Positions 34,655 to 63,229 of a stretch of 64,000 nt of DNA are shown here, piece by piece (position 1 is the stretch's first letter; each line of letters starts with the position of its first letter). The stretch covers positions 1,780,983-1,844,982 of the forward strand of contig CBDBBO010000001.1 in NCBI GenBank assembly GCA_965203135.1, in the 5' to 3' direction. Under the pieces are notes generated by a model, which made no database searches, was not told the origin of the DNA, and saw only the letters and a list, made by a program, of their open reading frames with translations. Both the position numbers and the translations under genes were made by a program. This DNA is from Dehalococcoidia bacterium. GTDB taxonomy: Bacteria; Chloroflexota; Dehalococcoidia; Lucifugimonadales; CATOSD01.

Positions 34655-34756
34655 AGGTGTACCTCCCGCAGATTTTCCTCGCTTGGCGCGGAGTGTACTC
34701 GCAAGTTTGCAACAAGTCAAGCGATTTGGGGCGCGTATCTATTCGGACGGCAGAAT

Positions 34757-37700
34757 CTACGGGACAGTCGTGACGTTGACCACGACCGTGGCGGTGGCGG
34801 CGGTGCCCCTGCCGTCGGCGGCTTGCACCGTCAGCGTGTGCGACGCGGCGGTCTTCCGGCTCAGCGCACCCGCCACCGTGATCGCGCCGTCGGACGCGCC
34901 TATGGCGAACAGTCCCGCGCTATTGCCCGCGCTGATGGAGTACGACACCGTGTCCCCCGCGTCGGGGTCGGTCGCCGACACCGTTCCCACCGGCGTGCTC
35001 GTCGCCGCGTTCTCAGGCACCGAGAAGGCGTAGCTGGACGTGGCGAACACCGGCGCGCGGTTGGCGCAGTCGGGCAGGCCCAGGTCGGCGAGGTCGTTGT
35101 TCGCCGCCTCCCGAAGCCCGAGGGGGACGCAGCCCGTAAGCGCGTTGCCCGCGAGGAACAGATAGTCGAGGTCGAGCTGAGCGAGGCCCGGGGGTATGGC
35201 ACCCGTGAGCCGGTTGTTGGAGAGCCACAGCTCCTCCAACTCGGCCAGCTCGGTCAGCGCCGGGGGTATGGAGCCTGTCAGCCGGTTGTTGCTGAGGTTG
35301 AGTTCGGTCAACTCGCCGAGTTCTCCCAGCCGCGCGGGGACGGCGCCGCTCAGGTCGTTGCCGCTGAGGTAGAGCACCTGGAGGCTGGCGAGGCCGCCCA
35401 GTTCGGGCGGTATCTCGCCCGTCAGGTCGTTGTCGAACAGGTGCAGGTGCGTCAGGTTGGCGAGGCCGCCCAGCTCCGGCGGTATCCCGCCCGTGAGCCG
35501 GTTGGTGTCGAGGTCGAGCCTGGCCAAGTTGGAGAGTTGCCCCAGTTGTGGGGGTATCTTCCCTGTGAGCCGGTTGTCGAACAGGAAGAGGTGCTTGAGG
35601 TTGGAGAGTTGTCCCAGTTGTGGGGGGACCGGGCCGGTGAGGGCGTTCTCGTAGAGGTCTATCCTGGTCAGCCCGGTGAGCGCGCCCAGCGCCGGCGGTA
35701 TGGAGCCGTCCAGGCCCAGTTCGGCGAGCCTGAGTTGTTGGACGCGGCCTCCCCGCACACGCACGCCCTGCCAGTCGGTGATGGGGTTGTCTGAGCTCCA
35801 GTCGAGGCTGAATGTGCCCGCGAGCGTCCGCATGACGCCGTGGTAGAGGATGAGGCAGTCGGCGACCAGGTCTGCGCCGGTGTGTGGTGGGACCACCCCG
35901 TCGCGGCAGACGGAGGTCACCGCTATCACCACCTTGGCGGTGGCCGCGCCTCCGTCGGCGTCGGCGGCCCGGACGGTGAGGACGCGGGACGGCGCGGGTT
36001 CGAGGAAGAGTGGGCCAGCGACGCTGATGCGGCCCGTGGCCGAGTCTATGGCGAAGACTCCGGCGTCGTTGCCGGCCGTAATCGAGTACGACACCGCGCC
36101 GCCTTCGGGGTCGGTCGCGGACACCACACCCACCGGCGTTCCGGTGGCGGCGCCCGCATCGATGGTGAAGGCGTAGCTGGACGTGGCGAACACCGGGGGC
36201 CGAGAGCACGCGCCGGTCGTGTGAGAGACGGGATCGGAAGGCTCGCTCCAGTCGGCGCGGTAGGTCGCTCCGTCGCCGTGGGCGCTCACCCGGAACTCGT
36301 AGACCGTCCCGCACACAGGCCCGCCCTCCGGGCTGAGCGCCAGGCTCGTGCTAGTCGTGGTGGAGAGGCCGGTCCACTCGCCGGCGCCGCCCGTGCGGTA
36401 CTGCGCGCCGTAACGGCTCGCGCCCGTGACCGCGCTCCACGAGACGGTGAACGCGCCGTCCGCCAGTGACACGCTCACGTCCTGCGGCGCGGGCGGCCTG
36501 GCGCCGCAGTCGGGGAGCCCCAGCGACGCCAGGTCGTTGGTGGGCACGTCCTTGAGCGCTACCGGGATGCAGCCGGTCAGCGAGTTGCCCGACAGCCTGA
36601 GCGTCTCCAGGTTAGAGAGGAGACCCAACTCTGCCGGTATCGTGCCGGTCAGGGAGTTGCCGGAGAGGTCCAGGCGGCTCAACCCGGACAGGCTTCCCAG
36701 CCCGGCGGGGATGCCGCCCGTAAGGTTCCTGCCGGTCAGCGCCAGCGCGGTCACTCGCAGAGGGCTGCCCCCGGTCGCGACGCCGTCCCAGCCGGTGATG
36801 ACCGTGTCCATGCTCCAGTCGAGGGGGGGCGGCGCCGCGCAGCGTGTCCCGTACGGCGAGCAGCGTCTCGCAGTCGCGGACGAGGGCGCGGTTGGCCGCG
36901 GGGTCGGGGATGACCGTGCCGTTGGCGCAGGCGTACGGCGCGGGCGGCTGGGACGGCGTGAAGGTGGTGGTCGCGTTGTCGCCGGGGGTGATGTCGTCAT
37001 ACGCCCCGATGTCGCGGTAGTACCGATTCAGGCCGGAGACGTTGGCTATCCTGGTGCTCGTGGAGGTCGCCGCGGCGGCGCTGACGCGGCTCTTGAGGTT
37101 GGCGAGCGTCTGGGTGTGTTCGGGGTCGCCCTCGTGGGAGCCGTAGCGCACCGCGTTCACCGTGCCGTCGTCGGCCCGCTGCACGTCCCACTGCGCCACC
37201 GCCTGCCAAGCCTCCACCGCGATGGCGTTGTGCGCGCCCATGGGCGCCAGAAACACCACCGCCTCGCGGCCGCCCAAGACGACGCCCAGAACGAGCTCTA
37301 CGTCGGAGATGATTTGGCTGAGATACTCATCGTACTCGGTCTCGGTCATGAGCGCCTCAGTCCCGAACTCTCCCTCGACATGGGCCAGCTTGTACAGTTC
37401 GTAGGAGCGTGCTTCCCCCATCCTGTCGTATGCAACGCTCAGCTTGGTGGAGCCTCTCCCCAGCAGGTACTCGCTGACGCTGTAGTCCGCGTAGCAGGCC
37501 AGGAACACGTAACCTGTTGTCAGGCCGCCGCGAGCCAGGGAGCGGAAGTTCGCCTTGAGCGTCGCGGGATAGACGGCGTTCATTCGCTCCAACTCGGCTA
37601 TGAAGCGGCGCTCGGCCTCCGCGGGAGACGGAAGCGGGGCGTCGGCGTCCAGACCCAGCCAGAAGCGCAGCGCGGCCTCTCGCTGTTCGGTTGTCCGCGC

Positions 37701-38159
37701 GATGCCGCGCCACTCGCAGCGCACGGAGTCTTCCGCCACGGCACCGCGAATCGCGATGTGCACCGGCGACGCTCCCGCCAAGCGCAGCCCCCGCTCCAGC
37801 ACGTCCTCCACGCTCGCCGCGTCCACCTCGCCACCCGACGCCGCGCCCCCGCTCGGCCCGCCCGAGAACAAGTCGGGTAGCAAGTGGGGAACGCGGGGAG
37901 TCGCGTCCGCCAGGGGCGTAGAGGTTGGCGCGGGAGTCGCCGCGGCTGTGGTTCGAGACGTTGCCGTCTCTGGCGATGCCGCATTGGGCTCCCGACTCGC
38001 CGCGGCGGTAGGTGTGGCCCCTGGCGTTGCCGCCACAGCCTGGGAGTGCCCATGCTCCGGTTCGGCTTGGGGCGATGTGGCATCCTGTCCGCAGCCGTAT
38101 GCAGCCAGCAGCAGCGTCAGTACCCACAGAACATTCGCCGCAACCATCCTCATTCTCAC
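34757..38159 (-). CDS. Lipoprotein B2: variable N-terminal domain + LRR + FN3 + cadherin + LRR + cadherin; frameshift at G7 tract 36823-36829
   Basis: ORFs 36612..38159 and 34757..37000 join as LRGAAPLDWS if one base of the homopolymer is removed; AYGC lipobox; ATDP[DE] cadherin motifs. Confidence 0.85.
34760..36220. repeat. About 1.46-kb near-identical direct repeat (cadherin-LRR-cadherin), partner 44392-45852
   Basis: Constant 9632-bp offset; near-identical translations in all frames. Confidence 0.95.
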
Positions 38160-38163
38160 TCCC

Positions 38164-40227
38164 TCACCCCCCGCAGCCCTCGGGCTCCTCGTATCCAGTC
38201 ACCTTCCCGCGTAACCCGTCGGGTATGCACCCGCTCAGACCATGACTGCGGTCGAGATACAGTGTCTCTAACGACCGTAGGTTACCCAGCTCCGGTGGGA
38301 TGGAGCCACTAAAATAGTTGTCTCTCAAGCTCAACTGCTTCAGAGCCGTCAGGTTGCCCAGTTCCGGCGGGATGGGACCGAAGAGACCGCTCCTTCCTAA
38401 GTCCAGGGATTCGAGCGCCGTCAGGTTGCCCAGTTCCGGCGGGATGGGGCCATCGAAACGACCGGCCAGATTGAGTTCTCGCAGATTGGCTAGCTCCCCC
38501 AGCTCAGGGGGGATGGGGCCGACCAGGTATGGCGTGTACCTATAACGTGACCGGTCGTCTGTGAGGTCGAGCACCCTCAGCTCGCTGAGCTCAGCCACTG
38601 CGCGAGGCAAGGGACCTACCATGTCGCGCCCCGGCAGGGAGAGACTATGAACTCGTAGCGAGGTCGACGTCTCACTGCTGTAGCCCTCCCTGGTCGTCTC
38701 GCCGAGTGTTATTCCCTCCCACTCGGAGATGGGCGTTTCCGCGTTCCAGTTAAGCCCCACGACAGCGAGCCGGTCCATCATCTCCACAAGTGCCTCACAG
38801 TCCCGCACAAGGCCAGGGTTCGACTCCAGGTCGGGGATCACGACCGCCGAGGAGCACACTGTTTCTGCCGAGTGCCTCTGCCCTGGGCCTGCGACTTCCA
38901 CAAGGCCCTTCGCGCTCCGTCTCGCCAGGACCCGCACGCCCGATCCGTCCGGCGACACGGTATAGAGCGCAACGTCCGACTTTTCATCCGCCACCAGTAC
39001 GGCGATACTTGAACCGTCTGGAGACCAGGACGGGTAAGTGGATGGGAGAGTCGTGATCCATGTTGCTACAGAGTGGACTCCAGAACCTTCCCACTGAACG
39101 AGATACAGAAGCTCACTTGGAGAAAACATGATCTGGGGACCAGTGAAATACGGAGACCAAGACACCCAACGGCCCCCTAGTCTTGCGTAGTCCGCATCCG
39201 GTCCGACCACTTCCCGCAAGTCTGATCCGTCACGGTTGACGGAGTAGAGCTTAAGGCGAACAGGTTGACCCTGTCGCCGTAGAAAGGTGATGCGAGACCC
39301 ATCTGGAGACCACACGAGCGGGCCCACAAGCGACCTCGACTTCCGATTCGTTACTCCGAGGGGCCTTTCCTCACCAACTACCAGCCTCGTCATACTGGAA
39401 TCACTGACATCGACCGTTACGAGAGAGGCGCGCTTGCTGCGCGTGATTGCGACCGACGGGTCGCGTCCATGCAGCGTCTCATCGATTATCAGGGCAACAG
39501 TCCGTCTATCTGGAGCCCACGATATGGTTCCAGTCAGAATATCCCTCCCTGACACGCCCCATTCCTTGCCAGGTATGACCTTGCGTACATCAGAGCCATC
39601 AGGCCTCATGGTGTAGAGCCCTATATCCGCAGGGTCGTGGGCACAAGGGGACTCGGCGTCTCTGGTGAACGCGATACGGGTGTCGTTGTCCAGCCAATCG
39701 GATGGGACATCGAATCCCACCTCGTGAGTGAGCCTCTTCTGTTCGGATCCGTCGAGAGCGGCGTTCACTATCTCAAAGTAACGCTTGTCCTCATCCACGT
39801 CATTGTACGCAGAGTACATGATGCGTGAGCCGTCACTAGAAACAATCGGGGAGTGGAATATATCACTCTCTTCGCCTATTGTGAGCAGACTCGATCCATC
39901 TGCCGCGACGACGTGCACTTGGCTTCTGCTTCTACTCTCAGAGTACAAGTCTGACCGGGTCGTAAAGACTATGTGTGCCCCGTCTGGTGTCCAGCGCGGC
40001 GATTGTCTGAGCAATTCTCGGTTGTAGATGTGGAGAAAGTCTGACGAGGTGTAGTGGCTCATGCCCGACTCGGTACTGAATGCTCTCGAAAGCCTACATT
40101 CAGACCAGTTGCCCCAGTTGCCGTAGTAGCTCATACACGCCCTCACCGCCAGCGCGATCCCGAATATCAACGCGAGTAGGACCGCCCATCTCGCCGTCCT
40201 GCTTTTCAATGCGTTGCTGAAGTTCAT
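38164..40227 (-). CDS. TolB-like (PD40) beta-propeller + LRR protein
   Basis: Repeated WTPDG/WSPDG/PDGSD blades; C-terminal LRRs with LVRDCEAL cap; N-terminal signal. Confidence 0.85.
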   Translation of the reverse strand: MNFSNALKSRTARWAVLLALIFGIALAVRACMSYYGNWGNWSECRLSRAFSTESGMSHYTSSDFLHIYNRELLRQSPRWTPDGAHIVFTTRSDLYSESRSRSQVHVVAADGSSLLTIGEESDIFHSPIVSSDGSRIMYSAYNDVDEDKRYFEIVNAALDGSEQKRLTHEVGFDVPSDWLDNDTRIAFTRDAESPCAHDPADIGLYTMRPDGSDVRKVIPGKEWGVSGRDILTGTISWAPDRRTVALIIDETLHGRDPSVAITRSKRASLVTVDVSDSSMTRLVVGEERPLGVTNRKSRSLVGPLVWSPDGSRITFLRRQGQPVRLKLYSVNRDGSDLREVVGPDADYARLGGRWVSWSPYFTGPQIMFSPSELLYLVQWEGSGVHSVATWITTLPSTYPSWSPDGSSIAVLVADEKSDVALYTVSPDGSGVRVLARRSAKGLVEVAGPGQRHSAETVCSSAVVIPDLESNPGLVRDCEALVEMMDRLAVVGLNWNAETPISEWEGITLGETTREGYSSETSTSLRVHSLSLPGRDMVGPLPRAVAELSELRVLDLTDDRSRYRYTPYLVGPIPPELGELANLRELNLAGRFDGPIPPELGNLTALESLDLGRSGLFGPIPPELGNLTALKQLSLRDNYFSGSIPPELGNLRSLETLYLDRSHGLSGCIPDGLRGKVTGYEEPEGCGG

Positions 40228-43200
40228 GGGTCAGCCTGATACAGCGCATAGATAGCCATGATGTCGAATGGATGGGGAGAGCAGTCGGGCTCATTTAGCG
40301 GCGAAGGGGCCCACCTTGCCCAATCTTCAGGTACACCTTTATCATAGTTCATCACCGCGTCCGGAATCGTAGGGTGTGCGGCTTCATATGGTTGGACATC
40401 CTCAAAGAACGACCAGAAAGGTTCCGTAACAAGACCCGCGTAACTGAAGTTGGATAGCCCCAGGGCATGTCCTGCTTCGTGCACAGCGAGCCTGTAAGCC
40501 TTGTAACCATTGTCGGGATCGGCGTCGGCCGGGTTCACAGCGTCCAGGCAGGTGTTGAACTGAGTACTGGCAGGCATTTTAACTGGATTCACGAAGCTCT
40601 CCTGGTTGAAGGTCACATCAACGCTTACTATCTCATTCTTTGCCTCCCTGTTGCTAAGGAACGCTCTCAATAGGATACGCCTCTGGATGTTCGGTAGGGC
40701 ATTACAGCCTAGGAGATCCTCGTTCTCACAGGCATCAATCGCTTGAGCATGCTGCCTCCGTAGTATGCTATCTGGGCCAATGCCGGAATAGCCAGAGAAC
40801 GAGGTGACACAGGCATCGGCACCCGCGACGCACAACTTGAACACGTCCGAATCAACCTCAGGGAATGACAGGACTTTAGACAGTCCATTGGCTGCATCGA
40901 GCATCCTGACTTCACTTCGGTCATCATCATCCATGATGAACTCACTCATTCTGGTGGAAGTGGACTTTTCGGAACAACGCCATACGCCCACACCATCAAC
41001 GCGAGGCGTCATGGTGATGAAGTTGTCTGTTGAGGTTGCCCACTCCCCAAAGGCGCTCTTGATGAGTTCAACCCATTGGTCATTCTCATTGACCAATGGA
41101 GTAGATGCATCATCGGGGGGGAAAGTGTCTCTGCAGATGATGTATTCGAACTCTCGATTCCGGTGGTGTCCAAAGAAAGTGTATGTCCCCACCACGCTGT
41201 CATTCGCTGGAACATCGCCAGACGGCCAGACGAAGGCATCCCTTGCAGAGAACACCTTATCGCCCGTAGTCGTCTCGTAGTTGAATTGGAATGCGTAGAT
41301 TGGCTCTGCGCGACCGCGACTCCCCTTTTCAAACGGCAGGCCTCTGATCGTTGTTGATGTCAGTGAAGGAGAGACATTCACAGGTGAAGAGTATTCACTA
41401 CCATAGTAAGGCCAACCTGCCCTTTCAGGCCACTCATGGTTGTCGTGGCTGACATGCCTGGTGTTCTGACCAGAGCCTCGCTCGTAGCTGCCCAATCGCC
41501 TGTGTCTGATCGAGTATGCCTTAACATGCGATATGCCGATCCACTCCAAGCGAGCTTCGCCCTTGCCGGAAGCCCTTGCACTGCCACCCTCAGTCAGTAG
41601 GGGGTTGTCTATAACCCTGATGATGTCGCTGTGTGTGCTGTCTATCTGCCCTATGCCGTCGCCCACCGCCCTTACGCGATACTCATATGACTCGCCAACG
41701 CCTAGATGCGCCATGCCATACTCCGTGTCCGGAACCGTGCTCGTACTCACCCATACCGAGTCCAGTATGATAGTCGCGCTTGCGTTGGACACTGGCAGAA
41801 GGACATTCGCCTGCCGCCACGTCGATGTAGCGCTATTCCGAACCTCCACCTCGTACCCGCTGGCTCTTGCGTCCCCATCCCAACTCAGTTCGGCTCTGCG
41901 AAGAGAGAGCGGAGAGACTATAAGGTTGGTAGGAGCGCTGAGTGTGGCCATCGGCGTCGCTTCAACGTGTGTCGTCCAATCGGATTCGTCTGCGCTGTTC
42001 ACGCTCCTGACCCGGTGAGCGTACGACGTGCCGTTGGTCAGTCCCCCGACATTGGCCGTGGAGTCGGCTATGGTGACTGTTGTGGTGGAGCCATCGAGGG
42101 TGAAGGGGGCGAAGGGCAGCGTGCGCCATGTTAGGTTTCCTGGAGAGCCGTCCCACTGCTGCACCTCGTACGAGGCCGCGCGGGCGGCGTCGTCCCAGTC
42201 CAGCGTTATCGTGCCGTCGCCGGTTGTGGTGGCCAGGTTGGTCGGTATGTCAGGGGGCAGTTCTTCAACCGTCACATCGAATAGGTCCACTACCCACAGT
42301 GTTCCAGGATGGCCGGGAGGGCCGTCCCACGCAACGACCGTGACCGACACGGAGCCTGCGGATAACGCCTCGAGTGTGAGCGTGCTTCCGCTGACCGTGG
42401 GATTCACGACGCTAGTGTCCTGCGACGTGACCGTGTAGATGAGAAAGGTCCCGTCAGGGTCGCCGAAAGTCCTGTACAGGTCAATCGTCGTGGAGGCTCC
42501 GGCGGTCATCGTCCTGTCGGCGATCTCCGTGTCTACAAACGGCCACTCGTTCACGTTGGTGACGGTGACGGTCACGTTACTGTCAGCCCTGAGATCGCCG
42601 TCGCTTGCACTGACCGTGACCTCGTACACATTGTTCCTGCCAGAGTCGATGGGATTCTCAAAGTCCGGGGCACTCTTGAAGGTGAGTTCGCCGCCGGAGA
42701 AGTTGAAGTCGCCGGCATCGGTGCCGCTAAGCGACCACTCTATGCCGCGGCCGCAAGAAGCCGAAGCGCGGTAGATCGCGACATTACCCCTACCGTTCTC
42801 GGAATAGAACAGGGGTGAGGCCGGACCCCTGATGACCGGCGCCGAGTGCCGATCGTCGTCCGTAATGGCGATTTTCGCTTCCTTCTGCGAACCCTCCACC
42901 ACTCCAGTCGGCCGGGTCCCGAAGCTCAGTTGTATCTCCTCGTCCGCACAATCCGTGTCGTGAAAAATGAAGTACGTGAATGCACTGGACGTGGCGTTGC
43001 TGCTGAATCTGGCCGTGCGTTCGAATCGCGGGCCCACCTTCACAGGTATGCGCAAGCTATGGCCCGGCGTCTTGCTCAGCTTGACTGTGATATCCACGCT
43101 CGAACCCTCGTTCACCGAGTACTCCTTCGAGCCGAACATCACACAGATTTCGTCGTCCGCGATGACGATGTCAGCGTCGTCTTGCGAACCGTTCGACACG

Positions 43201-44264
43201 TTAGGCGGCGGGTCGCCGAGGCTCAGTTCAATCCTCTCGTTCTCACAACCTCTGTCATGGTTGGTTCTGACAGTGAACGACTCCGACGTGTCATGCGGCT
43301 CGAAGGCCAGCTTGCCATTGGCCAGACCGCTCACGCTGTAGTCTTCGCTTTCAGCCGTATCCGCAGTTACCGTTACCGGTATACTGAACGTGTGGCCGGT
43401 CGGATGGCTGAGATTGACCGTGACAACCGCGTCCGATCCCTCGTTGACGTCGTATGTCGCCCTGCTGAACCCTACGGTCGGGTCGGCGACATTCAGGAAG
43501 TGGTCCGTCAAGCCGGATGAGGCGATGGCGTTGCCTCCCACCTCTTCCACCCACGCCCAGAGATATGACCCCGGCGCCGCGCAGCCGTAGGCGTCGTAGC
43601 TGCTGGTGGCCGAGGTCGCGCCCCGTATGGTTTCGGTCTCTTTGAAGTTGGTGCAGCCTCGGTTGAACGCCGCGCTGATTCCGTTCAGCACGACCGTGTT
43701 CAGCTCGTATGTCTTGGCTCTGCTGAGTCCCGTCGCGCTGACCGAGAAATCGTCTTTCGAACCGCCCGGTATCAGGTCCGCCGAAGTGACGCCGCTGAGA
43801 GCCACCGAGAGCGGCGCCTGCCCGACCACTCCTCGAGGGGTGATGGTTACGCTCACCTCCTCGATTACGTGTTCCGTGCCGGACGCGACCAGCCGCACGT
43901 AGCCGTCGCCGACCGAGCAGGCGTTCAGCGTGACCCAGGTGGGCGCGGCGGCGGGCTGCGTGGCTCCGGGCGTGGCGCCGTCGCACGCCTGGCCTTCCGG
44001 CGTGAAGTGCTCGCTGTAGTGGATTTCCACTTCCGTATCGAGCGGGGCCACGTGGAGGCCGACGGCGAGCGTCGTCTGCCCCACTTGCACCACGCCTGGC
44101 ACCACTACCAGTTCTCCGGTGGGCGTGGAGGTCGCGGTAGACCCCTCCTGCGCCCGTACCGTCTCTATGCCGCTCGACGGGTCGAAGAGAACGGCCGCCA
44201 GCGCCAGGAGGCTCATCGCCACCACCGCGAGCGGGATTGTCGGCGCTAGGCGATGGCCAGACAT
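40224..44264 (-). CDS. Secreted protein A2: conserved stalk (Calx-beta, cadherin, FN3) + C-terminal zinc metallopeptidase (metzincin-like)
   Basis: Signal peptide, VNEG/DDE Calx-beta motifs, PDFENP cadherin, FN3, HEAGHALGL and AVMNY Met-turn. Confidence 0.85.
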   Translation of the reverse strand: MSGHRLAPTIPLAVVAMSLLALAAVLFDPSSGIETVRAQEGSTATSTPTGELVVVPGVVQVGQTTLAVGLHVAPLDTEVEIHYSEHFTPEGQACDGATPGATQPAAAPTWVTLNACSVGDGYVRLVASGTEHVIEEVSVTITPRGVVGQAPLSVALSGVTSADLIPGGSKDDFSVSATGLSRAKTYELNTVVLNGISAAFNRGCTNFKETETIRGATSATSSYDAYGCAAPGSYLWAWVEEVGGNAIASSGLTDHFLNVADPTVGFSRATYDVNEGSDAVVTVNLSHPTGHTFSIPVTVTADTAESEDYSVSGLANGKLAFEPHDTSESFTVRTNHDRGCENERIELSLGDPPPNVSNGSQDDADIVIADDEICVMFGSKEYSVNEGSSVDITVKLSKTPGHSLRIPVKVGPRFERTARFSSNATSSAFTYFIFHDTDCADEEIQLSFGTRPTGVVEGSQKEAKIAITDDDRHSAPVIRGPASPLFYSENGRGNVAIYRASASCGRGIEWSLSGTDAGDFNFSGGELTFKSAPDFENPIDSGRNNVYEVTVSASDGDLRADSNVTVTVTNVNEWPFVDTEIADRTMTAGASTTIDLYRTFGDPDGTFLIYTVTSQDTSVVNPTVSGSTLTLEALSAGSVSVTVVAWDGPPGHPGTLWVVDLFDVTVEELPPDIPTNLATTTGDGTITLDWDDAARAASYEVQQWDGSPGNLTWRTLPFAPFTLDGSTTTVTIADSTANVGGLTNGTSYAHRVRSVNSADESDWTTHVEATPMATLSAPTNLIVSPLSLRRAELSWDGDARASGYEVEVRNSATSTWRQANVLLPVSNASATIILDSVWVSTSTVPDTEYGMAHLGVGESYEYRVRAVGDGIGQIDSTHSDIIRVIDNPLLTEGGSARASGKGEARLEWIGISHVKAYSIRHRRLGSYERGSGQNTRHVSHDNHEWPERAGWPYYGSEYSSPVNVSPSLTSTTIRGLPFEKGSRGRAEPIYAFQFNYETTTGDKVFSARDAFVWPSGDVPANDSVVGTYTFFGHHRNREFEYIICRDTFPPDDASTPLVNENDQWVELIKSAFGEWATSTDNFITMTPRVDGVGVWRCSEKSTSTRMSEFIMDDDDRSEVRMLDAANGLSKVLSFPEVDSDVFKLCVAGADACVTSFSGYSGIGPDSILRRQHAQAIDACENEDLLGCNALPNIQRRILLRAFLSNREAKNEIVSVDVTFNQESFVNPVKMPASTQFNTCLDAVNPADADPDNGYKAYRLAVHEAGHALGLSNFSYAGLVTEPFWSFFEDVQPYEAAHPTIPDAVMNYDKGVPEDWARWAPSPLNEPDCSPHPFDIMAIYALYQADP

Positions 44265-44328
44265 AACGCGCGTCCTCTGCTGCCGTGGCGCTCTGCCTCA
44301 TGCCGAAAAGGAAGCGCCTCCCGCATGC

Positions 44329-44358
44329 AGTGTACACACCCGCAGGAGGGTGTCGCAA
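44329..44358 (-). promoter_or_regulatory. Putative sigma70 promoter of A2
   Basis: TTGCGA-N18-TACACT; homologous sequence lies upstream of A1. Confidence 0.6.
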
Positions 44359-44388
44359 CGGCGCGCCGCGAATGGAAAGCGGCGCACC

Positions 44389-47300
44389 CTAGCCGGGATC
44401 CGTGACGCTGACCACCACCGTGGCCGTCGCCGCGCCGCCCCTGCCGTCGGCGGCCCGGACCGTCAGCGTGTGCGACGCCGCGGTCTTCCGGCTCAGCGCG
44501 CCCGCCACCGTGAGCGCGCCCGTGGCCGGGTCTATGGCGAACTCGCCGCCGTCGTTGCCCGCCGTGATGGAGTAGGACACCGCGTCGCCCGCGTCGGGGT
44601 CGGTCGCCGACACCGTTCCCACCGGCGTGCTCGTCGCCGCGTTCTCGGCCACGCTGAAGGCGTAGCTGGACGTGGCGAACACCGGCGCGCGGTTGGCGCA
44701 GTCGGGCAGACCCAGGTCCGCGAGGTCGTTGTTCGCCGCCTCCCGAAGCCCGAGGGGGACGCAGCCCGTAAGCGCGTTGCCCGCGAGGAACAGATAGTCG
44801 AGGTCGAGCCGAGCGAGGCCCGGGGGTATGGCGCCGATGAGCCGGTTGTCGGAGAGCCACAGCTCCTCCAACTCGGCCAGCTCGGCCAGCGCCGGGGGTA
44901 TGGAGCCTGTCAGCCGGTTGTTGCTGAGGTTGAGTTCGGTCAACTCGGTGAGTTCTCCCAGCCGCGCGGGGACGGCGCCGCTCAGGTCGTTGCCGCTGAG
45001 GTAGAGCACCTGGAGGCTGGCGAGGCCGCCCAGTTCGGGCGGTATCTCGCCCGTCAGGTCGTTGTCGAACAGGTGGAGGTGCGTCAGGTTGGCGAGGCCG
45101 CCCAGCTCCGGCGGTATCCCGCCCGTGAGCCGGTTTGTGTCGAGGTCGAGCCTGGCCAGGTTGGAGAGTTGGCCCAGTTCGGGAGGTATCTTCCCTGTGA
45201 GCCGGTTGTCGAACAGGAAGAGGTGCTTGAGGTTGGAGAGTTGTCCCAGTTGTGGGGGGACCGGGCCGGTGAGAGCGTTCTCGTAGAGGTCTATCCTGGT
45301 CAGCCCGGTGAGCGCGCCCAGCGCCGGCGGTATGGAGCCGTCCAGGCCCAGTTCGGCGAGTCTGAGTTGTTGGACGCGGCCTCCCCGCACGCGCACGCCC
45401 TGCCAGTCGGTGATGGGGTTGTCGGCGCTCCAGTCGAGGCTGAATGAGCCCGCGAGCGTCCGCATGACGCCGTGGTAGAGGATGAGGCAGTCGGCGACCA
45501 GGTCTGCGCCGGTGTGCGGTAGGACCACCCCGTCGCGGCAGACGGAGGTCACCGCTATCACCACCTTGGCGGTGGCCGCGCCTCCGTCGGCGTCGGCGGC
45601 CCGGACGGTGAGGACGCGGGACGGCGCGGGTTCGAGGAAGAGTGGGCCAGCGACGCTGATGCGGCCCGTGGCCGAGTCTATGGCGAAGACTCCGGCGTCG
45701 TTGCCGGCCGTAATCGAGTACGACACCGCGCCGCCTTCGGGGTCGGTCGCGGACACCACACCCACCGGCGTTCCGGTGGCGGCGCCCGCATCGATGGTGA
45801 AGGCGTAGCTGGACGTGGCGAACACCGGGGGCCGAGAGCACGCGCCGGTCGTCGCCGTGGCGGTCGCGGACCATAGGCCGGCCTGTCGGTCGTAGGTGGT
45901 CCCGTCTCCGTACGCGCCCACCCGGAACTCGTATGTGGCGCCGCAGCGCAGGCCGGCCGCCTTGTGGGTCGTGCCCGTAACGCTGGCGTCCACGCTCTGC
46001 CACGCCTCTTGCCCGCTCTCGCGGCGCTGGACTTGGTAGCCCGACGCGCCGCTCACCGGGTTCCAGGACAGGTCGGCTGCGTCCATTGCCGACGGTGCGG
46101 CCGTCAGGCCGGTGGGAGCGGGCGCGTATGGCAGCGCCTCGCGTATGCGCAGCATCAGCTTGGCGCCGTCCTCCCACGACTGGGATGGCACGGGCCAACT
46201 CAGCGTGGCGTTGGGCGCGTCCACCGCGGCGTCCGACACCGACAGGGACAGAGACACCGTTCCGTCCAGCTCGATGAAGTCGAGCCTGTGGCCCGCGAGA
46301 CCGGTGTGGGGGCTGAGCCTCATCTCGACGCTGCCGGATTCCCACGCGATGCGCTGGATGGTCGAGGTCGCGCCGTTGGTATCGGTGAACGACGCGAGCT
46401 TGAGGACGCCGTTGGCGCTGTCGGCGGCGACGGCGTTGCCGTCCGTGACGGGGTCGAAGAACGCCTCGTGGAGCGTGCCTTCGGGGGCGATGGCGCTGAC
46501 CGTCCATTCGGTAACGAGAAAGGCGTTACACGGTATCATATTGGGTTCCAGGTCTTTTACGGTGAATCTGTAGTCCCCAGCCGGAATCGGTCGCACCGGC
46601 CTGAGAGACTGCGTGTACCGTATGAAGTCAATTCCATCGGTGAGAACACCGTCGCGGTTCCAATCGTCGGGAGTCGTGGGGCCATCGACAGTCTCGAACA
46701 GGTCGGCGTCTCCGCCTTCGAGCGAGGTCTGCATTCTGGTGTCAGGGTAAATGCCAAACCCATCGCTCTCGAATATCACCGTGCCCGCGGGCGATCCGGA
46801 CACCAGCCTGTGGGTGTCGAGGACAGCTCTGATACCCAACTTCCTGCCCTCGCTTTGGGCGTGCCGTTCCTCGCGCTCAGCTTGGTATTTGATGCTGACG
46901 CAATTCCTGTAAGCTTCAGAGCCGTCGCCTGCGTTCAACTCGGCGTTGATCGCAGCGATGCGGCTCTTCAACTCCCGAATGGTTATCGTAGGGGTGTCCT
47001 TGCCCGGCTCGGGCACGGCGAGCAGAAACTCCTGGTCGTCCCCCGTCGCGCTCGTCCCCGCGGACGGAAGCCACAACTTGCTATATCGGTCTTGCAGGCT
47101 GTACCTGTCCTGGTAGGGGCCGCCGATAGACAGGAAGTAGTCGTTGGCCCCCTGTACTGCCGCGCTGAAGATATCGTAATGGTCATCGCTATTGAGGAAG
47201 ATGATCGCCTCGAGGTCGTCCCAGGTGGTAACCTTGTTGGCGGCGATGCCCGGCTCTGTGTCCTCGGCCTCACTCTGGGTGTCGTAGCCTCCACCCTGAA

Positions 47301-47661
47301 TTGCGAATGCGGTAATGCTGCTCTCGCCGGACCCGCGCAGGTACTCGCTCACCGTCAGGTGAAACCTCAGGGCGACGTAGTGATAGTCGCTCCATTCTTC
47401 AGTCGTCGTCGTGGCAATCTCACTCGTCGTCGTGGCCAACCGCGCCTTGACGATGGTGTCGGCATTCACTATCCGCTCTTCTATGGACTGCTCTCCGTGG
47501 TAGGGCTGCTTCGCGCCTGCGGCGGCCGGAGGGATGCCCGTGGACGGGGGCGGCGCAGGGGGCGCTGCGGGCGGCTCTGCCTGTTCGTCTGGTCGCGTGA
47601 CCAGGGAACAGGCCAGCAGCGCGCAGGCCAGCAGCATCGCAATGATAAGTTGCGTCCTCAT
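44389..47661 (-). CDS. Lipoprotein B1: variable N-terminal domain + FN3 + cadherin + LRR + cadherin
   Basis: MRTQLIIAMLLACALLAC lipobox; C-terminal approx. 485 aa near-identical to B2. Confidence 0.88.
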   Translation of the reverse strand: MRTQLIIAMLLACALLACSLVTRPDEQAEPPAAPPAPPPSTGIPPAAAGAKQPYHGEQSIEERIVNADTIVKARLATTTSEIATTTTEEWSDYHYVALRFHLTVSEYLRGSGESSITAFAIQGGGYDTQSEAEDTEPGIAANKVTTWDDLEAIIFLNSDDHYDIFSAAVQGANDYFLSIGGPYQDRYSLQDRYSKLWLPSAGTSATGDDQEFLLAVPEPGKDTPTITIRELKSRIAAINAELNAGDGSEAYRNCVSIKYQAEREERHAQSEGRKLGIRAVLDTHRLVSGSPAGTVIFESDGFGIYPDTRMQTSLEGGDADLFETVDGPTTPDDWNRDGVLTDGIDFIRYTQSLRPVRPIPAGDYRFTVKDLEPNMIPCNAFLVTEWTVSAIAPEGTLHEAFFDPVTDGNAVAADSANGVLKLASFTDTNGATSTIQRIAWESGSVEMRLSPHTGLAGHRLDFIELDGTVSLSLSVSDAAVDAPNATLSWPVPSQSWEDGAKLMLRIREALPYAPAPTGLTAAPSAMDAADLSWNPVSGASGYQVQRRESGQEAWQSVDASVTGTTHKAAGLRCGATYEFRVGAYGDGTTYDRQAGLWSATATATTGACSRPPVFATSSYAFTIDAGAATGTPVGVVSATDPEGGAVSYSITAGNDAGVFAIDSATGRISVAGPLFLEPAPSRVLTVRAADADGGAATAKVVIAVTSVCRDGVVLPHTGADLVADCLILYHGVMRTLAGSFSLDWSADNPITDWQGVRVRGGRVQQLRLAELGLDGSIPPALGALTGLTRIDLYENALTGPVPPQLGQLSNLKHLFLFDNRLTGKIPPELGQLSNLARLDLDTNRLTGGIPPELGGLANLTHLHLFDNDLTGEIPPELGGLASLQVLYLSGNDLSGAVPARLGELTELTELNLSNNRLTGSIPPALAELAELEELWLSDNRLIGAIPPGLARLDLDYLFLAGNALTGCVPLGLREAANNDLADLGLPDCANRAPVFATSSYAFSVAENAATSTPVGTVSATDPDAGDAVSYSITAGNDGGEFAIDPATGALTVAGALSRKTAASHTLTVRAADGRGGAATATVVVSVTDPG

Positions 47662-47696
47662 GGCTACCCTCTCAACTTCAGGTGTCTCTCGGAGCA

Positions 47697-50600
47697 CTAC
47701 TTCGCGGCGTGACTTGAATGGCGCCTGTAGATGGCCTCGAGCTGCGCGATGTCCGTGTCCTGTATGCTCTTGGCATCCCAGTACGCATTCATTATGGCAA
47801 GCTCGGCGTTTAGTTGTGGGTCATAGTTTGTAGACGGGTGGGGACCCCGAACTGAGTAGAAGTCCGGCAGACCCAGTGTGTGTCCTAGCTCGTGGAGCGC
47901 CAGATGCTCGGCATGAACAAAGTAAATGCGGGGCGGGCCCCGTGTTATCCGTATGCCGCTCAGGTTCGGGTTGCTCGTCCATACATACCTTATCTGCTCG
48001 GCAGGCAAACACGGATTGAGAGGGCTGTCACACCCATAGGGCGGGTCTTCGAAGATCACGTCCATGTTCGTGATGTGGCCGCCTACACCGTCGCGTGTGG
48101 GTATGGGCGTACCGGTCAGAGCTACACAGGCGTGGCTGCTCCCGCATCCGGTAAGGTTGTCTCTGGGCGAGCTCGGGGCCACAGTCTTGATGGTGGCTGT
48201 GTACCCGTCAGAATTGCGGCTGCGGCAGTCGTTGTCGGCGGTATCGCATATGCTCAGGACGGGGTTGATGCTGGTGTTCCACTGGGCAATCGCCGTCGGT
48301 ATCGCGGTCTCAAGGCTCATCTCAGAAATGGCGCCTATGGTATAGCCGACGGTGTGGTCGGCCTGGTGCCCCCACGCGTGCGTTGGTTCTTCCGCCAAGA
48401 GCCCCGCGCTCGTGGCCGCGGGGCCGCTGCCCGAACCGTTATGACCCTTGACGGAGAACGTGTAGTCGGTTCCCGGAACCAGTCCGAGCACGTTGAGGGA
48501 GAATGTGGCTGGGAAGCGGGCGCTTCCAGGGCTGACCTCTACCCAGGGGAAGTTCGGTATCTGGGATACGGTATGGGGTCCACTGGCGAAGCTGAACTCC
48601 AACGATGGGCTGTGGGGCGTCGCCCTGACCATGTAGGACGATGCGTTGGCGACACTTGGCACCCATTCAAGCAGAAAGCCCCTGTACCCTATCAGGTGGC
48701 TGACTGTCGGAGTGGGCGGCGCCGCCAAAGGCGATTCATCAGTAACGGTCGTCGAGACCACGTTGGATTCGGCGGACTTACCCTGCACGCTCTGGGCCTT
48801 TATCCTGTGCTCGTATTCCTCGCCGGGAGTAAGCCCGCTGACAACGACCTGGATCCTGCCGCCGCTAGTGGTTATTGAGCCTATGGTCACGCCATCATGC
48901 GGTAGCCTCCTCCATCCGGAGTCGAGCGGATTCAGGGTCGGGAAAAGCTGCTCTACGTGGTAGTTGCCGTCCAGATCATCGGCGACGTCGGGATTGGGAA
49001 CGGGGTCCCAAGAGAGCGTTAACTGCCTGTATTGCATCGCCACGTACTGGCCTTGCAGGTTCTGTGGGGCCGGCCTCAGGTTGACGGTGACTTCGCTCGA
49101 ATCGGCGGTCTGGCTGTCTCTGACGGCTCGAATGATGAACATGTGATACTCAGCGGTGTCGAGGCCATCGACCATCGTTGTGGTTACGCCGCTTCCCAGG
49201 ACCTGAATCGTGGTGTAGACACAAGGGCCGGGCGGGATGCGACGGCTCCTGCAATGTCGCACCTCATAGCCCGTCGCGTCTGATACAGCGTCCCAGTCGA
49301 GGCTGACGGTACCCGCAGTCCTTGTAAGTGTGTAGGTGAGATTTTCAGGCATTTCGAGTGGCGGCGGCTCCACCGTCACCGTGAATTGGTTGAATGCCCA
49401 CAGTGTGCCGGGCCGGTTGGGAGGCCCGTCCCACGCAATGACCGTGACCGGCACGGAGCCTGCGGATAACGCGCCAAGTGTAAGATCGCTTCCGCTAAGG
49501 GTGGGATTCACGACGCTAGTGTCCCCCGACGTGACCGTGTAGATGAGAAAGGTTCCATCAGGGTCGCTGAAGGTATCAGTCAGGTCGACAGTAGTGGAGT
49601 CGCCGGCGGTCATCGTCATGGCGGCGATCGGCGAATCTACAAACGGCGGCTCGTTGACATTGGTGACGGTGACGGTCACGTCCAGATCACCACTGGAACT
49701 GCCGTCGCTGGCCGTGACCGTGACCAGGTATTCGTTGTCTTGGCCGTCGTCGGTGGGATTCTCGAAGTCGGGGGTATTGTTGAAGTTGAGTTTGCCGTCG
49801 GAGGTGATGTTGAAGACGCCTGCATCGGTGCCGCTTAACGACCAGCTTATGGACCTGCCGCATGAAACCGAAGCGTCGTAGGTCGCCACCTCGTCGTCAC
49901 CGTTCTCGGCATAGTTCGGTGAGGCCGGACCGTCGATGACCGGTGCCGAATACGTATCGTTGTCCAGATGGGTGATGCGGGACACGTTCGGCGAACCGTC
50001 CACGACTCCACTCGGCCGCCTGCCGAAGGTCAGTTCTACCTGCTCGTTCGCACAGTTCCTGTCGTTCGGGGCTACGTAGGGGAAGGTATTCCTCGTGGCG
50101 TTATTGCCGAAGGTCACCGTGCGGTTGGTCCCCGGGGTCGCAATTACTATTACACTCACGGTACGGCCCGGCGCCCTGCTCAGCGTGACTTCGATGTGCC
50201 CGGTCGTACCCTCGTTCACCGTGTAATTCCTGGAGCGGAACATCACACAGACTTCGTCATCGGCAATTACGATTTCCGAATCGTCCTGCGTGTCTTGCGT
50301 AGGCTCGGACACGTGAGACGGTAGGTTTCCTATGCTCAGTTCTATCCTCTCGTTCACACAATCGCCGTCGTGGTTGGTGCTGACAGTGAACGACTCTTCG
50401 GTATCGTGAGGCTCGAATGTCAGCTCGCCCCTGGTCAGGCCGCTCACGCTGTAGTCGTTGCCTTCGGCCGTATCCGCGGTTACCGACACGGGTATTCTGA
50501 GTCTGTGCCCGGTCGGATGGCTGAGATTGACCGTGACAACCGCGTTCGCTCCCTCGTTGACGTCGTATGTCTCGCTGCTGAACTCTACGGTCGGGTCCGC

Positions 50601-51294
50601 GACGTTCAGGAAGTGGTCGTGCAGACCGGATGAGGCGATGGCGTTGCCGCCCACCTCTTCCACCCACGCCCAGAGGTATGACCCCGGCGCCGCGCAGCCG
50701 TAGGCCTTGTAGCTGCTGGTGGCCGAGGTCGCGCCCCGTATGGTCTCGGTCTCTTTGAAGTCGGTGCAGCCTCGGTTGAACGCCGCGCTTACTCCGTTCA
50801 GCACGACTGTGTTCAGTTCGTATGTCTTGCCGCTGCTGAGTCCCGTCGCGCTGACCGTGAACTCGTCTTCCGGACCGCCCGGTATCAGGTCCGCCGAAGT
50901 GACGTCGTCGAGAGTCACCGTGAGCGGCGCCTGTCCGACTAGTCCTCGTGGAGTGACGGTTACGCTCTCTTCCTCGATTACGTGTTCGGTGCCGGACGCG
51001 ACCAGCCGCACGTAGCCGTCGCCGACCGAGCAGGCGTTCAGTGTGACCCAGGTGGGCGCGGCGGCGGGCTGGGTGGCTCCGGGCGTGGCGCCGTCGCACG
51101 CCTGGCCTTCCGGCGTGAAGTGCTCGCTGTAGTGGATTTCGACTTCCGTACCGAACGGGTCCACGTGCAAGCCGACGGCGAGCGTCGTCTGCCCCACCTG
51201 CACCACGCCCGGCACCACTACCAGTTCTCCGGTGGGCGTAGAGGTCGCGGTAGACCCCTCCTGCGCCCGTACCGTCTCTATCCCATTCGACGGG
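47697..51294 (-). CDS. Protein A1: paralog of A2 with a different metallopeptidase tip; 5'-truncated (no original start or signal peptide)
   Basis: Stalk homologous to A2 (offset 7113) up to 51294; first in-frame start is GTG 51218; HELGHTLGLPD and AIMN. Confidence 0.8.
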
Positions 51295-51320
51295 CCTGCG
51301 GGAAGCGGCCCGCCAAGCGC

Positions 51321-51349
51321 AGTATACCCGCCCGCCAGAGGCGTCGCAA
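51321..51349 (-). promoter_or_regulatory. Putative sigma70 promoter of A1
   Basis: TTGCGA-N17-TATACT, homologous to the A2 promoter. Confidence 0.65.
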
Positions 51350-51388
51350 CGGCACGCCGCGGGGCGCGGGCTGCGGCAGTCTACCGGC

Positions 51389-52453
51389 TCAGCGTCCTCG
51401 CGACCATGGGCGCCTCCGCGCGCTCGCCAAATGCCTCGTCACCAACACCAGGCCGCCGACGATGAGGACGCTGAGGTAGGTGATCGAGCGGTCGACGAGG
51501 GCGATGGAGACGGCCTCGTGTCGGGCGAGGCTGAGCGCGAGCAGACCGGTCACGCCGGGCTCGACGGCCCCCACTCCTCCCGGTGTCGGCACGGTGCTCA
51601 GCAGCGCGTGGGCCAGCGCCACGATGGCCAGCATGGGCAGCCCGACCTCCGCGCCTAGCGCCTGCACGACGAAGCCGAGCCGCGCGATTTCCATGAGCCA
51701 GCCCAGCAGGCCCAGCGTGAACAGCGTGGGCAGTTGCTTGAAGCTGCCGAACGCCCCGCTCCGGAAGCTCAGGAAGGCCGCCTCGAGCCGCTGGGGCAGC
51801 AGCCGCGCCAGCCGAGCGCCGAACGCCTTGATGGCGATGACCAGCGCGGCGAGCGCGACGGTCATCAGCGCGGCCATCGCGGCGGCCCTGAACACCAGGC
51901 TCCTCGCGTCCGGCGTGTCAGCGGTCAACGCCAGCGCCAGCACGCTCACGGCGACGATGGCGGCGACTGTGGCCATGTCCATCACGCGCTCGGCCAACAC
52001 CGTGCCCAGGCTCCACGAGAAGCCGGCACGCGACTCCTGGGAGAACAGGTAGGCGCGGTAGGCGTCGCCGAGCCTGAGCCACGCGATGGAGTTGACGAAC
52101 CAGCCGGCCACGATGAGCGAGGCGCACCGGACCGCCGAGGGCAGCCGCGTGTCCGGGCCGTCCTCCAGTCCCGCGTTCTTTGCGAGAAGCCGCCAGCGCA
52201 GTCCGCGGAACGCGAAGCTGACGTAGTACAGCACCAGGGCCAGCGCGTACAGCCGCGGGTCCATGGAGCGCAGGTTCTCCAGGGTCGCGCCCCAGTCGAG
52301 ATCGAAGCGCGTCGACAGAAAGACGACGAAAGCCGCGGCCACCGCGAAGGACAGCAGCGTCGGCAGCGAGAGGACTCGCCGCCGCAGCGACATGGCGGGC
52401 GCGGAGTCCTGGCTAGGGCCGGTCTCTCCGCTTCCGAGGTTCGGTTCGCTCAC
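51389..52453 (-). CDS. Lysylphosphatidylglycerol synthase TM / flippase-like (UPF0104) protein
   Basis: RGLRW, LGDAYR, ERVMD, TPGGVGAVE. Confidence 0.88.
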   Translation of the reverse strand: MSEPNLGSGETGPSQDSAPAMSLRRRVLSLPTLLSFAVAAAFVVFLSTRFDLDWGATLENLRSMDPRLYALALVLYYVSFAFRGLRWRLLAKNAGLEDGPDTRLPSAVRCASLIVAGWFVNSIAWLRLGDAYRAYLFSQESRAGFSWSLGTVLAERVMDMATVAAIVAVSVLALALTADTPDARSLVFRAAAMAALMTVALAALVIAIKAFGARLARLLPQRLEAAFLSFRSGAFGSFKQLPTLFTLGLLGWLMEIARLGFVVQALGAEVGLPMLAIVALAHALLSTVPTPGGVGAVEPGVTGLLALSLARHEAVSIALVDRSITYLSVLIVGGLVLVTRHLASARRRPWSRGR

Positions 52454-56442: not shown

Positions 56443-56451
56443 GTTTGTGGA

Positions 56452-59396: not shown

Positions 59397-59399
59397 GCC

Positions 59400-60065: not shown

Positions 60066-60110
60066 ACCCGACCTTGGAGAAGTGCGAGCAGGACATTTGG
60101 CGGCGCGACG

Positions 60111-62654: not shown

Positions 62655-62657
62655 CCA

Positions 62658-63221: not shown

Positions 63222-63229
63222 CTTCGTCG

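Follow-up and report, generated by a model that had tools for sequence, protein, structure and literature searches.

What kind of system is encoded where unlike gene cores are framed on both sides by nearly the same DNA? The question is raised by five genes on one (the minus) strand of a 64,000-nt stretch of a Dehalococcoidia metagenome-assembled genome (MAG; GenBank assembly GCA_965203135.1, contig CBDBBO010000001.1), which we call the window. A sequence-only reading of the window had correctly given their order as A1, B1, A2, TolB-LRR and B2 (Table 1), and had taken them for cassettes in which the peptidase-like tips of the A proteins and the heads of the B lipoproteins are exchanged through conserved flanks. 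This first interpretation is partly supported by the analysis presented herein. The locus proved to be genuine and to have more structure than had been noticed: within a lineage-specific island, scaffolds common to both units and subject to recombination carry pairs that we take to be cognate. Probably, the island holds two paralogous operons, each of which would encode a cognate matrix metalloproteinase (MMP)-like protease and a head-bearing lipoprotein partner on gene-converted scaffolds; for such operons we infer binding, inhibition and exchange from the results described below.

The repeats on which this picture depends were found by comparing the window with itself by blastn. The B tails are 95.9% identical over 1455 nt at an offset of 9632, as had been claimed for a tail of 1.46 kb, and the A stalks (42265-44204 and 49369-51320) are 82.6% identical over 1970 nt at offsets of 7104-7113, so that the reported common stalk of about 1.9 kb is real, as is the bracketing of unlike cores by conserved DNA on both sides. 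BLASTP gave the same outline for the proteins: A1 and A2 are 60% identical in their first ~830 residues and match past the stalk only in a zinc-motif stretch (11 of 19 residues), and from the first cadherin domain onward B1 hardly differs from the tail open reading frame (ORF) of B2. Pfam detected fn3 and sub-threshold Calx-beta domains in the A proteins, fn3, Cadherin and LRR domains in the B proteins, and PD40 and LRR domains in the propeller gene. The promoter that A1 and A2 were said to share corresponds to a 41-nt promoter-like element in both, which is ~81% identical in a 42-column local alignment; the A1 copy contains TTGCGA-17-TATACT (51349-51321), a sigma-70-like match in a region where 6 such sites were found against 2.5 expected. 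An opposite reading from a MAFFT alignment, that the promoter is not shared, was dropped, as the local alignment and the scan for sigma-70-like sites reveal the common element. As a whole, the earlier observation was partly confirmed; revision was needed for B2, for the start of A1, and for the relation between the two tips and between the two heads.

Table 1. Features of the five-gene block, with positions in the window
Feature	Position	Strand	Description and basis
Lineage-specific island with the five-gene block, 16,678 bp	34736-51413	-	Flank alignments
Promoter-like element upstream of A1	51321-51361	-	Common to the A2 upstream region 44329-44370
A1	47697-51218	-	First gene in order of transcription
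A1 stalk: Ig-like N-domain, two Calx-beta, cadherin-like	49369-51320	-	Repeat with A2; Calx-beta sub-threshold in Pfam
A1 variable FN3 region	48501-49368	-	Pfam fn3, E 1.3e-19
A1 tip, predicted MMP-like metzincin catalytic domain	47700-48500	-	HELGHTLGLPD and Met-turn; AlphaFold2 and fold searches
B1	44389-47697	-	Second gene; start overlaps A1 stop at 47697
B1 head	46138-47697	-	Lipobox, Pro-rich linker, predicted NtA/N-TIMP-like domain (aa 71-257), helical hairpin, cadherin-like domain (aa 288-405), beta-sandwich
B1 FN3 and conserved tail (cadherin-LRR-cadherin, 44401-45852)	44389-46137	-	Pfam Cadherin, LRR, fn3
A2	40224-44264	-	Third gene
A2 signal peptide and stalk	42265-44264	-	Hydrophobic N-terminus; repeat with A1 stalk
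A2 variable FN3 region and A2-type peptidase domain	40224-42264	-	HEAGHALGL; hhalign to A1-tip family
TolB-LRR (TolB/PD40-like beta-propeller, C-terminal LRR, N-terminal membrane anchor)	38164-40227	-	Fourth gene; start overlaps A2 stop; Pfam PD40, LRR; NCBIfam TolB sub-threshold
B2	34757-38159	-	Fifth gene; made of two ORFs
B2 head ORF, lipobox	36612-38159	-	Out of frame past 36823-36829
G7/C7 homopolymer with one extra base, splits B2	36823-36829	-	Sequence; contigs of other runs
B2 downstream part: short LRR, FN3, cadherin-LRR-cadherin tail (34769-36220)	34757-36822	-	Pfam, BLASTP to B1, blastn

The A1 tip and the B1 head

The tip of A1 carries the zinc motif HExxHxxGxx(H/D) as HELGHTLGLPD, with Asp as the third ligand and a Met-turn after it; the available part of one published account names HEXXHXXGXXD the Asp-zincin motif (PMC3890501). 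Across a 51-sequence alignment of the tip family, H203, E204, H207, G210, D213, M237 and four Cys are conserved at 90% or more, and the AlphaFold2 model that used this alignment has a pLDDT of 92.1. Foldseek matched the model to karilysin at E 6e-6 (137 matches at E<=1e-3), and VIA returned 222 chains at Z>=8, including karilysin 4in9_A (Z 12.1, root-mean-square deviation (rmsd) 3.4, 148 of 162 residues), MMP-1, -8, -9, -12 and -13 (Z 11.2-11.9) and astacin (Z 11.7); the karilysin-PotA complex 8b2q is also among the structural matches. The tip is therewith predicted to fold as an MMP/karilysin-like metzincin, and no cysteine-switch pro-domain was seen with it. Judged by profile scores, the tip appears to belong to a divergent family of its own. 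It misses the Pfam Peptidase_M10 gathering score of 24 bits (11.2 bits, E 0.33), and a full HMMER scan with the A1 tip collected 329 representative proteins at E<=1e-3, of which 126 reached E<=1e-10, with the domain at or near the C-terminal end in proteins of varied length, excepting rows that match the leading FN3 remnant only. A phmmer search of both the A1 and A2 tips against PDB sequences returned FN3 or weak zinc-helix matches only, and among 50,697 phage records tblastn with the A1 tip found chance-level matches only.

The head of B1, modeled by AlphaFold2 with a pLDDT of 82.8, is predicted to begin with an OB-type barrel with flanking helices, as is found in the N-terminal domain of tissue inhibitors of metalloproteinases (N-TIMP) and in the NtA domain of agrin. 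VIA aligned model residues 71-257 with agrin NtA 1jb3_A at Z 8.4, which is barely above the grey zone stated for the method (rmsd 3.1, 112 of 127 residues); the title of that entry describes NtA as structurally related to N-TIMP-1. This match came from a wide VIA search of 48,161 chains, run independently of Foldseek, in which 1jb3_A ranked 45th and was the sole non-cadherin among the best 50. Foldseek found NtA (1pxu, 1jc7, 1jb3, 3i70) together with TIMP-2 (2e2d_C, 1br9) at probabilities of 0.99-1.0 and TM scores of 0.38-0.51. The cadherin-like domain of the head (residues 288-405) reached Z 10.7 in VIA and took the best 50 rows of a narrower VIA search, with NtA and TIMP not among them. At least 471 unannotated proteins belong to the B1 head family at E<=1e-5, the few named ones being Chloroflexi MAG hypotheticals or LRR proteins. 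Neither the B1 nor the B2 head was assigned to a family by Pfam or NCBIfam, and the ESM Atlas gave a best score of 0.76 for the B1 head and nothing usable for the B2 head.

We co-folded the A1 tip (residues 30-267) with the B1 head (63-520) in three runs, supplying each partner with its own alignment. The ipSAE scores were 0.71, 0.69 and 0.71 as compared to 0.00 for the best of three controls. Of solved complexes, 58 of 80 attain this mark, and of mismatched pairs 2 of 110 do, a calibration that is only rough, with self-made alignments. At least 79% of the contacts were common to the runs, with a partner pLDDT of 88 or more. In the best-defined contacts the peptidase loop 180-190 is clamped between the helical hairpin and the cadherin-like domain of B1. 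The predicted interface further includes I170, V173, D213, Y215, A239 and W241 around the zinc site of A1, and on the NtA-like domain residues 63-67 at its start, 101-102 and 136-137; it spans 81-118 contacts and three head domains. These models suggest that zinc-site residues and residues of the NtA-like domain pair across the cleft, and that the B1 head would bind and cover the A1 peptidase.

How might such a pair operate? The A protein would serve as a large display scaffold of Ig-like, Calx-beta, cadherin-like and FN3 domains with the MMP-like metzincin at its C-terminal tip. The B lipoprotein, translationally coupled downstream, would cover the peptidase with its head (NtA/N-TIMP-like domain, hairpin and cadherin-like domain), behind which the FN3-cadherin-LRR-cadherin tail would follow, and the second operon would add an extra membrane-anchored beta-propeller-LRR protein. 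Most likely, the head would act as an inhibitor or an immunity-like partner that restrains the secreted protease on the surface of the cell that makes it. The first interpretation had offered the heads as inhibitors or partners; for the heads this idea has gained ground from the NtA/N-TIMP-like fold, the MMP-like fold of the tip and a co-fold that passed its controls, whereas inhibition is something we infer and the TIMP Cys is absent.

The same pose could be read differently. The B lipoprotein might be a substrate, anchor or pro-factor, whose linker is cut by the protease to free an NtA/TIMP-like fragment that acts elsewhere, on the cell wall, a host matrix or other cells. Residues 63-67 of the head, which follow the low-confidence Pro-rich linker, lie in the interface together with the surroundings of the zinc site, and a substrate-like pose would look alike; the adhesin-like tail of cadherin and LRR domains would suit a released or displayed binding factor, and the available part of the report on Listeria Tim describes it as cleaved and released by its metzincin (PMC8235301). 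We nevertheless consider this quite unlikely, because an interface of 81-118 contacts over three head domains, with loop 180-190 clamped, exceeds what a cleavage site needs, and because the many orphan heads that lack a peptidase suit a protective repertoire better than a pro-factor.

The second operon appears to vary the same theme. The A2-type peptidase has HEAGHALG invariant in 7 sequences, with a variable position +11, an invariant His ~35 residues downstream and then V-M/L-N-Y (a putative Met-turn). A2 scored 17.7 bits (E 0.0035) against Pfam Matrixin, under the cut-off, and the A2-type profile found MMP-14 in the PDB at E 0.012. The HExxHxxGL tips of A1 and A2 had been described as different domains; they do diverge past the stalk except in the zinc-motif stretch, but hhalign aligned their families with a probability of 93% (E 3e-7) over the N-terminal 81 columns only, suggesting that the two peptidase domains are remote homologues. 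Similarly, lipobox signals do start both B1 and the B2 head ORF, as was claimed, but the heads are probably not unrelated, as was also claimed. Their families (that of B2 has at least 433 proteins at E<=1e-5) gave a weak hhalign match with a probability of 28%, E 6e-4 and 114 columns, which lends weak support to remote homology; our own view of the heads as clear homologues had to be weakened, since the shared core is barely detectable. The A2 peptidase region has a GC content of 52.6%, and we rejected a recent foreign origin for the GC dip at 39-43.5 kb because the homologous A2-type peptidase and propeller genes of relatives G006, G007 and G008 are equally low in GC (53-56%).

Tip and head linkage across genomes

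Do tips and heads travel together? Among 11 family genomes (numbered here with a G, the genome of the window being G000), a B1-type head directly follows the A1-type peptidase match on the same strand in 11 of 11 cases. To these a scan of species-representative genomes with a 12-sequence subset of the 51-sequence alignment added eight loci. In the six from further Chloroflexota/Dehalococcoidia MAGs a B1-type head adjoins the A1-type gene in 7 of 7 cases, bringing the overall count of A1-type genes followed by a B1-type head to 18/18; the two loci beyond Chloroflexota (Oleiharenicola and Cellulomonas) match in the zinc motif only, have no head gene and were not counted as family. Ten A2-type loci retain the catalytic N-terminal part. 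All nine that could be assessed have a B2-type head downstream, and in 8/10 the propeller gene lies between peptidase and head. Genome G008 contains an 898-aa frame that fuses a B2-type head (from ~residue 88), an FN3 piece and an A2-type peptidase (L029:4484-6892; G008:C1:196454-198886), which is either a natural fusion or a partner/enzyme recombinant. Moreover, identities of the peptidase C-terminus and of the head co-vary over 10 pairs (Mantel Spearman r 0.866, reached in 0 of 5000 permutations; G003 was left out as its head is cut by a contig end), a signal that stands for non-independent assortment and not for co-evolution, because linked genes have a common descent and the 10 pairs form about three clades. 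Independent assortment of tips and heads, which the first interpretation had named as evidence that would speak against it, was therefore not seen in either the A1-type (11/11 and 7/7) or the A2-type loci (9/9).

Heads also occur apart from complete peptidases. B1-type heads gave 80 matched stretches in 10 of the 11 family genomes, a separate count for the genome of the window gave 10 stretches, and orphan B2-type heads are present as well. Three tandem units in G002 (L040; G002:C16:2358000-2367500) each consist of a 114-136-aa ORF for the C-terminal half of the peptidase, starting just before the zinc helix, and an intact head gene. Comparable units of fragment and head are found once in G006 (with a 144-aa fragment ORF) and twice in G007. 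We also noted that the short fragment ORFs of G002 and G006 have a common conserved N-terminal stretch, unrelated to the peptidase, that may mark a common recombination junction. Two relics were seen in the genome of the window itself: a 69-aa frame (G000:C2:758393-760002) in which 28 residues match (75%) the very end of the A2 peptidase and which directly precedes a paralogue (41%) of the propeller gene, and a 93-aa frame (G000:C1:1309076-1309246) with a fragment of the A2 peptidase C-terminus (47%).

Such arrays invite a stronger reading, that of a polymorphic effector-immunity system of an extracellular MMP-like protease and a TIMP-like lipoprotein, in which tip and head cassettes would be exchanged between common stalk and tail by flank recombination, with the fragment/head arrays and orphan heads as a reservoir. 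One stalk with alternative tips, a co-varying downstream gene and fragment-partner arrays are all present, as would be looked for in polymorphic toxins; Pfam and NCBIfam scans of the locus proteins found no T5, T6 or T7 secretion or pre-toxin domains. We regard this stronger reading as possible but unlikely.

Several observations weigh against the cognate protease and partner operons that we favor. TIMPs are characterized by a free N-terminal Cys, which chelates the zinc, and by a conserved disulfide pattern. The NtA-like domain of B1 has no Cys at its start; it begins at about residue 63-71, behind the lipidated Cys and a Pro-rich linker of ~35 residues, and within the head family invariance or conservation of at least 90% is seen for just three Cys, C30 (in the lipobox), C266 and C390. 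None of 66 members of the head family matched TIMP or NTR Pfam models at E<=10, and the family profile had 0 matches among 177,635 PDB sequences. The likeness of the modeled B1 head to NtA and TIMP is one of fold only. Part of the co-fold score, itself roughly calibrated, may likewise reflect likeness, because MMP-TIMP complexes have already been solved, and for the Mantel signal the shared descent of linked genes in about three clades would alone suffice. The other B1-type heads of this genome have no HExxH ORF upstream. Since head families far outnumber peptidase families, a head would not need to serve a peptidase. Finally, both units are damaged in this strain. B2 is frameshifted, and A1 lacks ~120 nt which in A2 hold the start codon and a hydrophobic signal peptide: homology of the A1 stalk extends upstream of the first start codon, with the earliest in-frame start a GTG at 51218, while 9 of 12 stalk-initial relatives have a signal peptide as judged from the N-termini of representatives. 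As A1 is predicted to be without a signal peptide here, it may never come into contact with B1.

Probably recombining scaffolds in a lineage-specific island

Why, then, are the flanks so much alike? One answer would be an old tandem duplication whose ends stayed alike by purifying selection while the middles drifted, with neither cognate pairing nor recombination, and the first interpretation had itself named an invariant old duplication as an outcome that would contradict it. The units do abut head to tail, the promoter-like element, stalk and tail are common to both, and tips and heads are remote homologues. Synonymous divergence (dS), however, is a mosaic. It falls from 0.7-0.96 in the FN3 domain just upstream of the tail to 0 at the first cadherin domain, rises to 0.03-0.2 over the LRR and stands at 0.26-0.29 at the last cadherin; within the stalk it is 0.07-0.25 (aa 1-230), 0.6-0.7 (aa 240-310) and 0.3-0.5 beyond. 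Purifying selection on the protein is not enough to explain this, because dS itself is mosaic. In addition, both types of tip and head form separate conserved pairs elsewhere, G007 has the A2-type and A1-type units in the reverse order to G000 with homogenised tails of its own, and the island of the sister genome G003 holds other cassettes. The duplication account is largely refuted by dS and the relatives, and we consider it highly improbable.

Gene conversion between paralogues is what the patterns of divergence point to as the process that would keep stalk and tail alike. For example, the two B tails of G007 match each other at 91% over 1952 nt and at 98% over 391 nt, but show only 45-57% amino acid identity to the tails of G000; tails are thus nearer to the paralogue in the same genome than to the orthologue, which is a signature of gene conversion. 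The variable FN3 region of A1 is 88% identical to its G007 counterpart at the amino acid level and 25-45% identical to that of A2. In G000, G007, G001 and G003 the stalk carries tips of the A1 type, the A2 type and a third type, and A2-type tips also occur on other N-terminal architectures. Exchange of cassettes through the conserved flanks is suggested by the dS mosaics, the homogenised tails of G007 and the other cassettes in the island of the sister genome. Tip and head core would therein be an old cognate pair that is inherited together, and stalk and tail would be shared scaffolds subject to conversion between paralogues within each genome, yielding the picture of conserved flanks around a variable core. 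One stretch of the A stalk (aa ~320-450, at 49900-50260 and in the A2 counterpart) has a ratio of nonsynonymous to synonymous divergence (dN/dS) of 0.8-1.7 and a protein identity of 34-44%, which could mean that the second Calx-beta-like domain is under relaxed constraint or diversifying selection. The A2-type and A1-type units of G007 also share 313 nt at 77% identity (L026:4931-5236 and L026:15517-15819), which precede the stalk match in the A1-type unit and the frame encoding the A2-type peptidase.

The whole block is an insertion between otherwise adjacent genes. Alignments of the flanks with G001, G005 and G007 reach 34735 (34671 in G007) and resume at 51414-51426, and in those genomes only 59-210 bp separate the two flanks. 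The genes that border the island, one for an Fe-S protein (33404-34720) and one of the LPG-synthase-TM type (51389-52453), lie 72-401 bp apart in 8 of the 10 other family genomes, with a gap of 1.4 kb in G010; annotation of the flanks covered the nearby genes. The sister genome G003 has flanking proteins 91-99% identical to those of the window and shares the Fe-S-side junction, where it aligns to 34802 at 95.7%. Its A gene on the LPG-synthase side has the third type of tip (28-38% identity) and is accompanied by a head at 31%, and its B gene on the Fe-S side is B1-like (79.5% nucleotide identity to 44619-46492) and not B2-like; contig breaks hide the middle of this island.

A further claim of the sequence-only reading was not borne out: B2 is not a single gene here. 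A +1 frameshift in a G7 run divides it into the head ORF and an overlapping tail ORF (34757-37000), and with one base fewer in the run the junction of head and tail would have the length of that in B1. Contigs of runs X1 (possibly the source run) and X2 (from the same study as X1) have the same G7 run and reproduce 36400-38200 and 36400-37729, respectively, without difference, frameshift included. A ~92% relative in run X3, from another study, leaves out one base at 36823 and has B2 in frame. A relative was seen in a run labelled as a coral metagenome. For the B2 head stretch, no RNA data set was listed as carrying it. Could the near-identical tails, the truncation of A1 or the frameshift of B2 be artefacts of assembly? 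Contamination of the MAG stands at 4%, repeats of 1.45 kb that are 96% identical pose difficulties for assembly, and errors in homopolymers are frequent. We find this scarcely credible all the same, as the contigs of the two runs, of which X1 is possibly the source run, agree with the region, independent genomes show this architecture as well, and the Fe-S-side junction is also found in the sister genome.

Other parts of the window contain genes of related interest. The LPG_synthase_TM gene at the island border (minus strand) has a paralogue at 23501-24544 (plus strand). A second mosaic array at 56304-64000 (plus strand) encodes large cadherin/FN3 proteins (56304-59396, 60111-62654 and 63218 to the end of the window), behind which stand small multi-pass membrane proteins (59400-60065 and 62658-63221); residues 287-523 of the first large protein are matched by the third at 98% identity, and for the second the identity is 54-87%. 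At 5258-7180 (plus strand) lies a 640-aa LRR protein with a Pro/Thr-rich linker, a C-terminal membrane anchor and a GC content at third codon positions (GC3) of 0.62, the repeats of which are 44-50% identical to the LRR of the B tail. A 1315-aa protein with Zn-ribbon, DUF559 and DEAD/Helicase_C domains and then a 177-aa ORF occupy 17628-21575 (minus strand) with a GC3 of 0.61-0.62, below that of their neighbours.

Relation to known systems

The closest known system appears to be Mtz-Tim of Listeria monocytogenes. According to the available part of its report, a secreted metzincin is followed there by a lipoprotein gene that has no promoter of its own and a TIMP-like predicted structure; Tim is described as having no sequence similarity to TIMPs, pairs of the Mtz-Tim type are reported across many Gram-positive bacteria, and its authors state that they found no other record of TIMP-like bacterial proteins (PMC8235301). 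As in that account, a metzincin gene here directly precedes the gene of a lipoprotein with a predicted TIMP-like fold, a likeness of gene order and predicted folds. The Listeria proteins are described there as small and encoded beside a phage-type CI/Cro switch, whereas here the peptidase tips a display protein of >1100 aa, the partner adds helical and cadherin-like domains and an FN3-cadherin-LRR-cadherin tail, and the families are multi-copy and mosaic. Among titles and abstracts, we found nothing linking metzincins to TIMP-like partners in Chloroflexota.

Animal MMPs with TIMPs, and agrin NtA, resemble the pair in the predicted catalytic fold (Z 11-12), in the first domain of the partner and in an interface predicted on the rim of the active site. 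They differ from it in that the partner here has neither a free N-terminal Cys nor a TIMP/NTR sequence signature, the third zinc ligand is Asp and not His, and no cysteine-switch pro-domain was seen. If the fold likeness reflected common descent, uncultured Dehalococcoidia would hold a bacterial counterpart of the animal MMP/TIMP pair. Lipoprotein inhibitors beside peptidase genes are also known from the KLIKK peptidases of Tannerella forsythia, for each of which the available part of the report describes one specific potempin (PMC9890683); potempins are said there to have 98-132 residues and genes that precede the peptidase gene, whereas the partner here lies downstream, exceeds 1000 aa and has another predicted fold.

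Polymorphic toxin systems such as contact-dependent inhibition (CDI) and Rhs offer the third comparison; their tip diversity is described, in the part of the source available, as arising by recombination with stand-alone cassettes (PMC3482391). The locus shares with them a conserved N-terminal part, a variable C-terminal tip that is predicted to be enzymatic, a putative cognate gene directly downstream, tandem arrays of truncated tip and intact partner (the three units of G002) and many orphan partner genes. It differs in that the candidate immunity protein is a large extracellular lipoprotein and in that the C-terminal side, the tail, is conserved as well. The locus would thereby provide a clean case of scaffolds homogenised by gene conversion with cognate cores still linked, a testable function for two large unannotated families, and a concrete enzyme/partner pair for biochemistry. 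Above all, it suggests that a logic like that of Mtz-Tim is used in another phylum, by 329 peptidase-domain representatives and at least 471 and 433 head proteins of the two types, on adhesin-like scaffolds.

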